This document shows positions 28,329 to 47,574 of a DNA stretch of 64,000 nucleotides, piece by piece. Origin of the DNA: Bacteroidales bacterium (GTDB lineage Bacteria > Bacteroidota > Bacteroidia > Bacteroidales > UBA4417). The stretch lies in contig JADJGZ010000011.1 of the NCBI GenBank assembly GCA_016707785.1, positions 75,859 to 139,858 on the forward strand, read 5' to 3'. The notes below the pieces were generated by a model, which saw nothing but the letters and a program-made list of their open reading frames with translations, made no database searches and was not told the origin of the DNA. How positions within the stretch are numbered: position 1 is the first letter of the stretch; each line of letters opens with the position of its first letter. A program made the translations under genes and the position numbers.

Positions 28329-30965
28329 GTGAGTAAAGAAAAGGAACAAAAGGAGGTTGCATTAACTCCTCTCATGAAGCAATACAATGCAATAAAGGCT
28401 AAATATCCTGATGCTTTGTTATTGTTCAGGGTTGGAGACTTTTATGAAACATTTGGTGAAGATGCTATCAAAGCCTCGGAAATACTTGGTATTATCCTGA
28501 CGCGGCGTGCCAATGGCTCAGCTCAATATATCGAACTTGCCGGTTTTCCACATCATTCTCTCGATACCTACCTTCCAAAATTGGTTAGAGCAGGATACAG
28601 GGTTGCCATATGTGACCAGCTGGAAGACCCGAAAATGACCAAAACCATCGTCAAAAGAGGAGTTACTGAATTGGTCACACCCGGTGTTTCCTATAATGAT
28701 AAGATCCTTGAAAACAAGGAAAACAATTTCCTGGCTGCTATACACTTCCTTCCAAAATCGTCAGGCATCTCCTTTCTTGATATTTCAACAGGGGAATTCC
28801 TTCTGGCACAGGGATCCAATGACTACATCGATAAATTACTTCAAACATTTCGTCCTTCAGAAGTGATTGTTCAGAAGAATAAACGTCAATCATTCACAGA
28901 AACTTTTGGAAGCCAGTTTTATCTCTCCTATTTTGAAGATTGGGTCTTCACCCATGATTTCACCCATGATCTGCTGATTAAACATTTTGGCACTACCTCC
29001 TTAAAAGGATTTGGAGTTACAGAACTTGAGAATGGCATCATTGCATCCGGAGTAGCCATGCATTACCTTTCGGAGACACAGCATGATAAAGTTCAGCACA
29101 TCTGTAAATTGTCAAGAATCGAAGAGGATCATTATGTCTGGCTGGATAAATTCACCGTCCGTAACCTTGAACTGATCCAATCTCCCAATGAAAATGCAAG
29201 CACCCTTTTTTCGGTGCTGGATAAAACCATCTCTCCTATGGGATCAAGGTTAATGAGGCGTTGGCTGCTGCTGCCCCTCAAGGACAGAAAACCTGTGGTG
29301 GAAAGGCATGAAACAGTGGAGTACCTGAATAATCACCCGGAATTAACCGCAGTTCTTGATCAAAATCTTAGGATCATCGGAGATCTTGAGAGACTTATCT
29401 CAAAAGTAGCCGTTGGAAGAGTTACCCCAAGGGAAATCCTGCAAATCAGGCGGGCGCTTCTGGCTTTGGTTCCAATAAAACAAGCCTGTGCTTCCACCCG
29501 TCATGAAGCAATGCAACTGATTGCCGAACAAATAAATCCCTGTGAATTAATTGCCGATCAGATAGGCAAGACTATAAAGCCAGACCCTCCTGCCCTGGTT
29601 TCCAAAGGGATGGTAATTGAGGATGGAATTTCACCCGAACTTGATGAATTAAGAAAACTGGCATTTTCAGGGAAAGATTACCTGGTTCAAATGCAACAAC
29701 GGGAAATCGAAAATACAGGTATTACCTCATTAAAAGTTGGCTTCAATAACGTTTTCGGGTATTATCTTGAAGTAACCAACGCTCATAAGGAAAAAGTGCC
29801 GGCAGAATGGATGAGGAAACAGACCCTGGTGAATGCCGAACGATATATCACTGAAGAGCTGAAAGAGTACGAACAAAAAATCCTGGGTGCTGAAGAAAAA
29901 ATCCTGGATCTTGAGAATAAATTATTTAATGAATTGGTTTTACATCTGGCTGAATACGTGCAGCCTGTTCAACTGAATGCCCAGTTAATTGCCCGGATTG
30001 ATTGTCTTGTTTCTTTTGCCCGCGTATCCATCGAAAACCATTATGTGAGGCCTGAAATAACCGATTCCTTTTCAATAAACATCGAACAAGGCAGGCATCC
30101 TGTCATTGAGAAACACCTCGCCACTGGGGAAGAGTATATTGCCAACGATGTTTTTCTTGATAATGAAAAGCAACAGATCATTATGCTGACGGGTCCTAAT
30201 ATGTCGGGGAAATCTGCCTTGCTGCGACAGACAGCCCTGATTGTGCTCATGGCACAGGTTGGAAGTTTTGTGCCTGCAAAAGCAGCCACCATTGGATTGG
30301 TTGATAAAATATTCACACGTGTCGGGGCTTCTGATAATATCACCTCAGGAGAATCCACATTCATGGTGGAGATGAATGAGACTGCCAGTATCCTGAATAA
30401 TATTTCCAACCGAAGCCTGATTCTGCTGGATGAAATTGGCCGGGGCACCAGCACTTACGATGGAATCTCCATTGCCTGGGCAATTGCTGAATACCTTCAT
30501 GATCATCCGCTATATAAGGCTAAGGTTTTGTTTGCCACCCATTATCATGAGCTGAATGAGATGGCAATGACGAAAAACAGGATCAAAAATTTCCATATTG
30601 CTGTCAAAGAGATCGGCAAGAAAGTAATATTCCTTCGGAAACTTACCCCTGGTGGCAGTGAACATAGTTTTGGAATCCATGTTGCAAGGATGGCCGGGAT
30701 GCCCGGAAGCCTCATTCAACGGGCAGAAGATCTGCTAATTCAATTAGAAAAGAAGCGTAGCAGTGCGGAATTAAATCCCGGAAAAGTTTCCGGAAAGCAG
30801 GTTCAGAAATCCCAGGATCAGTTTCAGTTAAGCTTTTTTCAATTGGACGACCCCCTGCTGGAGAGTATTCGGGATGATATCCAACACCTGGATATTAATA
30901 CTTTAACACCTGTTGAAGCCTTGATGAAGCTGAATGAAATCAAAAAAAAGTTGCAGAAATATTAA
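28329..30965 (+). CDS. mutS: DNA mismatch repair protein MutS
   Basis: 878 aa. [30 protein letters not shown], Walker [21 protein letters not shown]. Apparent GTG start. Confidence 0.95.
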
Positions 30966-30973
30966 TAGGATGT

Positions 30974-31077
30974 GACAATTTGACGATTCGCCGATTTGAC
31001 GATTCGCCGATTTTACGATTCGACAATTTGACAATTTGACAATTTGACGATTCGACAATTTGAAACTTTGGCAATTT
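30974..31077. repeat. Tandem array of ~13 degenerate octamers (GACRATTY)
   Basis: gacaattt gacgattc gccgattt gacgattc gccgattt tacgattc gacaattt x3 gacgattc gacaattt gaaacttt ggcaattt. Begins 9 nt after the mutS stop. Confidence 0.85.
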
Positions 31078-31204
31078 AAAAAAGGGAAGCCTTCGGCTTG
31101 AAAATGCGACAAGGTCGATATAATTACGAGGTTGACATAATAAATATCAATGGCTTATTATTCTTCCTTGAGTTTTATTGTCTTAGTGCCGGAAAATTAT
31201 AACA

Positions 31205-31335
31205 ACTCAGCACAGAGCCACTGACTCCCCTTCGGGCACTCAGCACCCAGAGCCAAAGGCTCCCCTTCGGGGCACCCAGCACCAGCACTCAGCACTCAGC
31301 ACCCAGAGCCAATGGCTCCCCTATGGGGCACTCTC
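31205..31335. repeat. Three copies of a ~28-29 nt double-hairpin unit interleaved with CAGCAC(T/C) heptamers
   Basis: cagagccactgactccccttcgggcac / cagagccaaaggctccccttcggggcac / cagagccaatggctcccctatggggcac, joined by tcagcac-type repeats. Confidence 0.8.
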
Positions 31336-46962: not shown

Positions 46963-47202
46963 ATGTCTGATGTCGGATGTCTGATGTCGGATGTCTGATG
47001 TCTAATGTCTAATGTCGGATGCCCCGAAAGGAGCCTTTGGCTTCGGATGTTGGATTGCGGATTGCGGATTGCGGATTGCGGATTGCGGATTGCGGATTGC
47101 GGATTGGAGATTGGGAATTGTAGATGGTGGATGGGACTTGGTCCGCCGGCTGGCGGATGGGACTTGGTCCGCCAGCTGGCGGATGAGACTTGAGACTTGG
47201 GC
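46963..47202. repeat. Mosaic micro-repeat element: 25 heptads in one continuous register (ATGTCKG x8, a 28-nt hairpin unit, ATTGCGG x7, degenerate heptads), then 2 copies of a 26-nt double-hairpin unit
   Basis: Starts 2 nt after the GH16 stop. The register was counted by hand from 46963 to 47137. The units gggacttggtccgccRgctggcggat occur twice (47131..47185). Confidence 0.85.
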
Positions 47203-47457: not shown

Positions 47458-47574
47458 TACTCAGAGCCACAGGCTCCCCATCGGGGCACTCAGAGCCACA
47501 GGCTCCCCTTCGGGGCACTCGGCACTCAGCACTCAGCACTCAGCACTCAGCACTCAGCACTCAGCACTTAGCAC
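47458..47574. repeat. Two ~29-nt double-hairpin units followed by a (CAGCACT)n array with 6 perfect copies
   Basis: cagagccacaggctccccatcggggcact, cagagccacaggctccccttcggggcact, then cggcact, (cagcact)x6, tagcaca. Ends 33 nt before the next ATG. Confidence 0.85.

Follow-up and report, generated by a model that had tools for sequence, protein, structure and literature searches.

What kind of element is a short hairpin-forming repeat that occurs at three loci and in both orientations within one stretch of a Bacteroidales genome, and by what route could it have spread? Short hairpin repeats scattered through the genome are a common feature of bacteria, and we know of no established mode of movement for most of them. 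The window analysed here is the whole stretch of 64,000 nucleotides (C11:75859-139858) of a 5.14-Mb, 61-contig genome with a GC content of 41%, referred to below as the source genome; feature coordinates are those of the window.

Copies of the repeat in the window

The original prediction described a unit of about 26-29 nt in six copies, and all six were present at the three loci. The conserved unit was shorter, as a genome-wide census set it at a 22-nt core, AGCC-RAA-GGCT/YCCC-TTY-GGGR (consensus AGCCRAAGGCTYCCCTTYGGGR), and the CAG and CAC on either side of it proved to be sequence of the surrounding heptamer arrays.

At 31.2-31.3 kb, three cores were found on the plus strand with CAGCACY heptamers between them: a decayed copy with four mismatches to the consensus (31216..31237, AGCCACTGACTCCCCTTCGGGC), a perfect core of type A with the DNA fold ((((...))))((((...)))) (31251..31272, AGCCAAAGGCTCCCCTTCGGGG) and a copy with three mismatches (31307..31328, AGCCAATGGCTCCCCTATGGGG). 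The CAGCACY array between the cores (31272..31306, plus strand) is a simple-sequence repeat of the host in which the cores are inserted. A decayed, inverted copy of type B was also detected on the minus strand at about 31077..31098, with hairpin 1 and the following TCCC intact (AGCCGAAGGCTTCCC) and the remainder degenerate; it adjoins a GACRATTY octamer array (30969..31077, plus strand), which belongs to the array family that hosts type B cores throughout the genome.

At 47.46-47.52 kb, two plus-strand cores stand in tandem one heptamer apart, the first with two mismatches (47465..47486) and the second with one (47494..47515), and the latter is followed in phase by eight CACTCAG units, corresponding to a GCACTCA array of 8.6 copies on the plus strand (47515..47574). 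The inverted copy (47021..47042, minus strand) carries a 1-nt deletion and lies between GACATCY and GCAATCC heptamer arrays, the surrounding arrays being read as ATGTCKG and GGATTGC on the plus strand, which is the G-rich one (46963..47106). Both core-bearing regions of the window are intergenic, one located between a long upstream ORF (28329-30965) and a tRNA-Gly, and the other in a spacer of 645 bp between a GH16 gene and an acyltransferase-like gene.

A second unit at 47.13-47.19 kb had been described as sharing the two-hairpin architecture with a different sequence. This region was found to hold two copies (47142-47157 and 47168-47183; span 47142..47183, no strand assigned) of a different element, a 16-nt palindrome (TCCGCCRGCYGGCGGA) set in GGGACTT heptamers. 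The palindrome is present in 44 exact copies, and its distribution among relatives differs from that of the twin-hairpin core.

Fold and covariation of the core

The core folds as two 4-bp stems closed by two 3-nt loops, RAA and then TTY. In the source genome the pair 12-22 was C-G in 91 copies and T-A in 37, and among 106 exact-pattern copies from other genomes it was T-A in 64, C-G in 39 and mismatched in 3 (p = 2e-25). As the variable loop bases, including those at loop positions 5 and 18, combine freely in the exact-pattern copies from other genomes, this covariation does not merely reflect the existence of two clones. A compensatory C-G was also found at pair 1-11 in one copy.

In an alignment of 81 distinct copies, the model of two stems with two triloops exceeded all 500 shuffles in both covariation and double changes, so the covariation of paired bases that had been anticipated was supported for the pair 12-22. 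The same pair corrects the predicted form of the second hairpin, for which a C(UUCG)G tetraloop had been proposed: covariation in the tetraloop register was no better than in shuffles, and the 12-22 pairing fits a 4-bp stem with a 3-nt loop instead. A single 7-bp hairpin, which is the thermodynamic optimum for the GAA/TTC variants, likewise showed covariation no better than shuffles.

The reverse complement of the core has the same architecture, with the RAA loop first and the TTY loop second. Therefore, both strands fold in the same way, which fits an element acting at the DNA level. The predicted stability was modest, -4.7 kcal/mol as DNA and -7.6 kcal/mol as RNA, and not better than that of shuffles. 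When Rfam 15 was searched, only the two tRNAs of the window were matched and nothing was found in seven other copy-bearing loci, and this absence of matches to the copies ruled out a known RNA family.

Copy number and association with tandem arrays

Further copies were expected elsewhere in the genome, and 153 were found within five mismatches of the core on more than 40 contigs, compared to one in the reversed genome used as a control, which ruled out chance or artefact as their source. All of these numerous copies were effectively intergenic once spurious ORFs running through the arrays were discounted, and many were decayed, with broken pairs. A generic scan of the source genome for twin hairpins with conserved structure and changed sequence detected the AGCC/YCCC family and one CGCC variant only, so that structure kept with sequence changed does not describe the repeats of this genome.

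The claim that the units are always flanked by heptamer arrays was accurate for 106 of the 153 copies (69%), which were within 30 nt of a tandem array of 7-8-nt units, and not for the remainder; the arrays (273 of period 7 and 130 of period 8) make up only 0.65% of the genome. The flanks of the core vary with the host array, including CACTCAG, CAAAATG, AATTGTCG, CATCCGA, CATCTCC and others, and the core was found in at least eight unrelated array families. Cores of type B were found in AATTGTCG and GAATCC arrays, and cores of type A in CACTCAG and CAAAATG arrays.

Arrays of this kind have precedents, as heptanucleotide repeats are known in the form of TAACTGA in Beggiatoaceae, Cyanobacteria and Bacteroidetes and of the cyanobacterial STRR (PMC4679880). 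These simple-sequence repeats match the array background described here, in which intergenic tandem repeats of 7-8 nt form many sequence families, but the arrays are the target and not the element: arrays of the same families were present in 38 of the 41 genomes of the genus, whereas the twin hairpin was present in two.

Distribution among relatives

At one mismatch or fewer, 86 copies were counted in the source genome, seven in one congener and none in 59 other relatives, 35 of them of the same genus. The congener is a bin labelled Cfx3-02, whose copies likewise interrupt short arrays, with G|CA or G|GA as the junction. In 12 relatives with a close orthologue of the acyltransferase-like gene (80-86% identity), the spacer upstream of this gene was short and free of repeats, and a GH16-like gene was kept directly upstream of it in nine of the 12. 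As the arrays are found across the genus and the repeats are missing from the orthologous spacers, the arrays are an old feature of the host and the twin hairpin arrived later. Therefore, the twin hairpin is a recent, lineage-specific invader of the source genome, and the arrays are older. A close strain with empty sites was searched for with a 34-nt anchor from the end of the GH16 gene, which had no match in metagenome contigs.

Insertion site and orientation of the core

A family of long-hairpin repeats of about 130 nt in the source genome was found in two states. In the empty state (five copies) the sequence reads ...CAAGAATCTTGCTTTG|CAAATTCATTGCG... (CTTTG|CAAATT), with the junction G|CA, and in the filled state (at least nine copies) 22 extra nucleotides are present at that junction and nothing else, without duplication of the target. 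The base at position -1 was a purine in 142 of the 153 copies of the source genome, and that at position +2 was A in 132. In other genomes, position -1 was a purine in 88 of 105 copies, with G|AA as the commonest junction. Therefore, insertion of the core is exact, leaves no duplication of the target site and occurs at the junction of a purine with (N)A.

Within the arrays, by far the most frequent offset between the units directly before and after the core was the one that keeps them in phase, and the AGCC...GGGR strand ran on into the C-rich array strand in 110 copies and into the other strand in 34. Independent insertions are fewer than copies, as many of the filled copies have diagnostic mutations or array contexts in common; a G2-to-A variant, for example, is present in all the filled long-hairpin copies.

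The absence of target-site duplication, together with two ends that are not inverted repeats of each other, distinguishes the core from a classical MITE. Both the lack of duplication and the strand-specific insertion are features of the IS200/IS605 type, and the core could accordingly be regarded as a REP-like repeat moved by a Y1 HUH transposase, either a RAYT or an IS200/IS605-type TnpA, with the mini-hairpins as left and right ends of a single-strand "peel and paste" reaction. The location of one hairpin at either end, the preference for unpaired DNA as target and a weak orientation bias against the local GC skew (90 copies versus 59, p = 0.014) are in agreement with such a mechanism, as are atypical REP structures reported for Bacteroidetes TnpA subclasses (PMC6006769) and the occurrence of Y1_Tnp genes both in the source genome and, in a sample of 16 core-bearing genomes of other phyla, in 15.

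The distribution of these genes nevertheless argues against it, since Y1_Tnp is encoded by 40 of 41 congeners and the element is missing from 39 of 41. None of the 22 Y1-transposase genes inspected adjoined a core: no copy was found within 1.5 kb on either side of 20 Y1_Tnp loci in core-bearing genomes, and the two Y1 genes of the source genome are flanked by other repeats, with no core within 5 kb. In addition, the core carries neither a GTAG nor a CGTC tag, no cognate TnpA was found, and no split master copy, in which hairpin 1 and hairpin 2 would enclose a gene, was detected. A RAYT partner was thus discarded as the leading idea, and movement by any Y1 transposase is considered distinctly unlikely.

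Occurrence across phyla and in the loops of other hairpins

The element is not restricted to Bacteroidota. In collections with one genome per species, the exact 22-mer pattern gave 105 matches in 59 assemblies, mostly of CPR, against a chance expectation of about 1 (9e-13 per site x 1.2e12 sites). All the assemblies are metagenome bins, some of whose taxon labels may be wrong; by label, about 33 are CPR/Patescibacteria and about 17 Bacteroidota, and the remaining ones are Gammaproteobacteria, Nitrospira, Akkermansiaceae, Terriglobales, Ignavibacteriota, Neomarinimicrobiota, Auribacterota or just "bacterium". No match to the core was found in viral contigs, which ruled out a phage vector as a lead.

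Outside the source genome, the core was found mostly in the loops of other hairpins. At least 11 copies are in GTCATYCCCGYG|...|AAGRCGGGRATCCAG hairpins resembling Ssn-related motifs, and such hairpins recur with their core as units in CPR genomes; several other copies are in D-loops or T-loops of tRNA fragments. The tRNA of locus L030, with a core in its D-loop, was considered as a working gene and rejected, as it is a fragment within a patch of tRNA debris. Another 15 copies from other genomes were within the R|AA triloop of a 4-bp mini-hairpin, and ten of these hosts were themselves twin hairpins with other stems; no copy in the mirror orientation was found in such loops among the copies from other genomes. 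Therefore, the target of the core is unpaired when single-stranded, being either the loop of another hairpin or the C/A-rich strand of a heptamer array, which is not self-complementary.

These contexts bear on the possibility that no dedicated enzyme is involved, and that rare insertions were followed by passive spread through gene conversion, slippage, oligonucleotide-like recombination between arrays of the same heptamer and amplification of core-carrying composite repeats. The correspondence between core subtypes and array families, the maintenance of the array phase in the flanks, the G2-to-A variant common to the filled long-hairpin copies and the recurrence of core-bearing Ssn-motif-like hairpins as units are all as expected from such a process. 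Homology-driven spread, however, does not account for cores in at least eight unrelated array families of the source genome, nor for the dozens of unrelated loop contexts elsewhere, always with a purine|NA junction and a single orientation, nor for the identity of the 22-mer across phyla. As a complete explanation, passive spread is therefore rather unlikely. Some of the spread was nonetheless probably passive, since the core subtypes track the array families and the core-carrying composite repeats have themselves multiplied.

Position relative to genes

The copies were present in 92 spacers, among which those between convergent genes were enriched (28 versus 13.5 expected) and those between divergent genes were depleted (p = 8e-5). 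A test for association with the 3' ends of genes had been suggested; the enrichment in convergent spacers agrees with such an association, but no clustering of copies near stop codons was detected in these spacers and the orientation relative to genes was unbiased (42 versus 31).

A structural signal selected by the host, such as a stabiliser of mRNA 3' ends, a terminator or a protein-binding site, would be consistent with the bias towards convergent spacers and with the maintenance of one base pair by covariation. An intrinsic terminator was not supported, as the bases from +1 to +7 are rich in C and A with no T-run after the core, the orientation is unbiased and the folding is weak, at -4.7 and -7.6 kcal/mol for DNA and RNA, and no better than in shuffles. 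The lack of any Rfam match, the decay of many copies with loss of pairing and the absence of the element from 35 of 36 congeners that have the same genes and arrays also argue against selection by the host, which is very unlikely to explain the repeat. Decay, spacer bias and lack of orientation bias suit junk that the host tolerates better than a signal kept by selection; any reading frame would be shifted by an insert of 22 nt.

Association with small GIY-YIG nucleases

An unbiased clustering of the ORFs at 105 core loci revealed a small GIY-YIG nuclease as the most recurrent family, with 11 ORFs in eight assemblies, four of them 0-27 nt from a core. In the loci labelled as Saccharibacteria, the order was a 5' fragment of tRNA-Ser, one or more twin hairpins, the remainder of the D-loop, the nuclease gene and an intact tRNA-Ser(GGA).

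Homologues of the nuclease were then used to collect 80 metagenome loci, in which 51 perfect twin hairpins were detected compared to 0.25 in shuffles, the latter being the control for generic twin hairpins since a reversed sequence preserves hairpins. Of these 51, 45 preceded the nuclease gene by 0-120 nt, and they were distributed over 38 of 78 loci. The nuclease-adjacent twin hairpins showed 11 different first stems and nine different second stems, with RAA/TTY loops in 34 of the 51, and their geometry and loops were identical to those of the cores in the source genome. The idea that structure is conserved while sequence changes, which had been proposed from the unrelated palindrome, thus failed for that example and holds for these twin hairpins.

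A tRNA was present in 34 of 40 loci checked, nearly always a tRNA-Ser and in most cases starting at the end of the nuclease gene, and the arrangement of a tRNA 5' fragment upstream and an intact tRNA downstream of the nuclease was found in loci L157-L196, L032, L071 and L084. A core of the AGCC type was located upstream of the nuclease gene in five loci (L172, L173, L201, L206 and L212), and one of these cores is inserted within a resident twin hairpin, in its A|AA loop. Therefore, the core belongs to a superfamily of twin hairpins that have the same geometry and loops and many different stems, located directly upstream of small UPF0213/SLX1-like GIY-YIG genes in 5' fragments of tRNA-Ser. The nearest solved structures to the nuclease are the UPF0213 proteins 1zg2 and 1ywl, followed by SLX1, and it had no NCBIfam match. 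The nuclease-adjacent cases are mostly of one locus type, associated with tRNA-Ser in Saccharibacteria-like genomes, and they may share ancestry.

The source genome encodes four small GIY-YIG genes, among them those at C42:56-328, C17:23105-23326 and C14:40273-40476, and the product of one of them, C42a, matches the profile of the associated nuclease with 99.3% probability. No core was found within 5 kb of any of these genes, contig C42 beginning 55 nt upstream of C42a. As the copies of the source genome are solo and located in arrays, they are relatives of the tRNA-borne GIY-YIG module and not members of a cassette. Genes similar to C42a were present in 23 of 41 congeners, most of which lack cores, and the nuclease is therefore not sufficient for the presence of the element; a phyletic link between both within the genus was not discriminating, with the gene in 23 of 41 genomes and the element in two. 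The association of the nuclease with the twin-hairpin superfamily is well supported, whereas its role as driver of the burst in the source genome is putative.

Comparison with known systems

No description of a bacterial double-hairpin element or of the core sequence was found in the literature searched, in agreement with the initial failure to recognise the unit as a described element. Its behaviour resembles that of REP/BIME mosaics, of Ssn-related motif (SRM) repeats and of double-hairpin elements of fungal mitochondria, but it departs from the first two in features that define them.

In REP/BIME and REPIN-RAYT systems, REPs are single imperfect palindromes of 20-40 nt with a GTAG or CGTC tag, and copies of them flank the RAYT gene (PMC3116915, PMC3733652). 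The likeness to REP/BIME mosaics that had been proposed is appropriate for a high-copy, intergenic and hairpin-forming repeat that is dispersed, builds mosaics with other short repeats and is enriched downstream of genes. It does not extend to the structure, which consists of two 4-bp hairpins without either tag and without an inverted pair of REPs, nor to the partner, as none of the 22 Y1-transposase genes had a copy beside it and no RAYT was flanked by cores. Moreover, the distribution of the core is patchy and crosses phyla, whereas REPs are vertically inherited.

The closest described analogue is the Ssn system, made up of the SRM/NTS hairpin repeats and of ssDNA nucleases with a single GIY-YIG domain (Ssn clade, CDD cd10448; Chenal et al. 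2025, PMC11893778). Both systems consist of a short hairpin repeat dispersed in tens to hundreds of copies, and twin hairpins related to the core are found directly beside a stand-alone GIY-YIG gene of about 90 aa; recognition of the repeat as ssDNA is plausible. In contrast, an SRM is one 7-8-bp hairpin with a CGTC tag, whereas the core has two 4-bp mini-hairpins and is itself found inside SRM-like loops. None of the 153 cores with 15-nt flanks on each side fitted the SRM pattern HGTCWY..YYVSBRH..WNVSBRG..RNCYNB, which showed no enrichment genome-wide either (11 matches, and 11 in a shuffle). Among solved structures, those closest to the associated nuclease are UPF0213 proteins and SLX1, and no copy flanks a nuclease gene in the source genome.

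The double-hairpin elements of Allomyces mitochondria, and the GC clusters and repetitive hairpin elements of other mitochondria, likewise comprise a pair of neighbouring GC-rich hairpins within a genome richer in AT, and are dispersed with presence or absence between close relatives. They are organellar and of unrelated sequence, whereas the 22-mer of the core spans bacterial phyla, and we know of no nuclease partner reported for them. In what PMC2800124 cites from Paquin et al. (2000), no flanking duplication is reported for the Allomyces elements. Miniature elements derived from IS200/IS605 (palindrome-associated transposable elements) resemble the core in the lack of target duplication, in strand-specific insertion and in a hairpin near each end, but the core is far smaller, at 22 nt, with no cognate TnpA found and a target that is just purine|NA.

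Putative mode of spread and its consequences

The reading that best fits these data, and which we consider fairly probable, is that the repeat is a solo, proliferating member of the twin-hairpin family, a non-coding insertion element of 22 nt with a putative mobilising enzyme. On this reading, the core would spread via single-stranded DNA, a small GIY-YIG nuclease would recognise the twin hairpin and nick unpaired targets, and gap repair, ligation or template switching by the host would install a copy of the core; homology between flanking repeats may aid its spread within arrays. GIY-YIG enzymes are DNA-hydrolysing and, as far as we know, do not join DNA, so the "paste" step would have no known catalyst. 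For the host, the core would probably be neutral junk, tolerated chiefly downstream of genes.

A more specific and tentative proposal, which we regard as possible though doubtful, is that the core is moved in trans as ssDNA by UPF0213/SLX1-like GIY-YIG nucleases that read both mini-hairpins and open unpaired purine|NA sites. To our knowledge, a twin hairpin moved in this way would rank among the smallest mobile DNAs.

If this proposal is correct, insertion would be guided by DNA structure, including nesting in the loops of sister elements, and one element could cross between CPR bacteria and Bacteroidota. If the link with the nuclease is causal, the widespread and uncharacterised UPF0213 family would gain a function, and the spread of repeats of less than 30 nt would become testable with oligonucleotides and one small protein. 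What is new here is the link between the core and the nuclease cassettes, together with the rule that governs the target, the nested insertions, the comparison of empty with filled sites and the finding that the arrays pre-date the element.

The core accounts for part of the repeat mosaics that break the assemblies of the source genome, and ORF calls running through core and array spacers should be treated with caution by annotators. The genes located between clustered copies were ordinary housekeeping genes.

Short-period arrays and the mini-repeats within them

Throughout the source genome (G000), 273 period-7 and 130 period-8 tandem arrays were detected, representing more than 90 sequence families, and one strand was C/A-rich in every array. 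These families recur in 38 of the 41 congeners, though at other loci. The border between two unlike array types was a frequent site of the twin-hairpin cores. Genome-wide, many arrays are crossed by stop-to-stop ORFs of 90–150 aa, ‘inside’ which 39 cores were counted; these ORFs arise artefactually from the periodicity of the repeats and do not warrant gene annotation.

Besides the twin hairpin, the heptamer arrays house another mini-repeat, TCCGCCRGCYGGCGGA. This 16-nt palindrome is flanked by ..TTGGT on one side and ATGG.. on the other and is present in the window at 47142–47157 and 47168–47183. Its distribution among relatives is patchy, with 44 copies in the whole G000 genome (all exact), 36 in G002 and 57 in G011, the latter genome being devoid of twin hairpins, and a range of 1–6 copies in each of four other families. 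A variant with a TGAG loop was also seen 40 nt upstream of a gene for a small GIY-YIG nuclease, at the start of contig C42.

Outside the window, G000 contains a repeat family of ~130 nt, TATACCGTTGCTGAATCATTTTGCGA...CGGTATAACTCAATCTGCAAGAATCTTGCTTTGCAAATTCATTGCGATTGAGTATAAA, which folds into a long hairpin and has no match in Rfam. Copies were located at C2:68857, C13:72652, C36:19010, C39:9987, C49:5019, C57:82856 and C61:36427, on C12 and C60, and at other positions; among them, all four combinations of presence or absence of the twin hairpin and of the CCGCC palindrome were found.

GIY-YIG nuclease genes with other motifs

Contig C42 (C42:1–60) begins 55 nt upstream of two GIY-YIG genes in tandem, and therefore a repeat upstream of the pair appears to have broken the assembly; this repeat is possibly a hairpin or a tRNA fragment. 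Within C17:22900–23620 (locus L114), the flanks of a 108-aa GIY-YIG gene carry TCCATTTCGACAGGCTCAATGTGACA in three direct copies as well as a GTCATGCTGAGCTTGTCGAAGCAT motif, a candidate for another nuclease–motif pair, distinct from that involving the twin hairpin. At C14:39800–40700 (locus L115), the GIY-YIG gene lies between copies of tRNA-Asp in which the anticodon region is replaced by the long hairpin CCCGTCTCGTCAC-CAG-TGACGAGACGGG. This design matches that of the tRNA-borne CPR nuclease cassettes of other genomes, whereas the hairpin differs from theirs.

Y1 transposase-like genes and their repeats

The Y1 transposase-like protein of 148 aa encoded at C6:56357–56701 (locus L116) carries a Y---Q--HH motif, as in subclass 1.2, which reportedly occurs in Cyanobacteria and Bacteroidetes with no accompanying REPs (PMC6006769). 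The same two phyla are common to this subclass and the heptamer arrays. The L116 gene is bordered by a 48-nt tandem array in which the mini-hairpins GACCC-TTC-GGGTC and AGGC-TTC-GCCT occur, and also by direct repeats of ~100 nt with two C-GAA-G hairpins. A second Y1_Tnp-like gene, at C4:68241–68453 (locus L117), has arrays of the 28-nt GC-rich unit GCGTGACTGCTGGCGCGCGTCTCCCGAC on either side, a layout that resembles REP/BIME.
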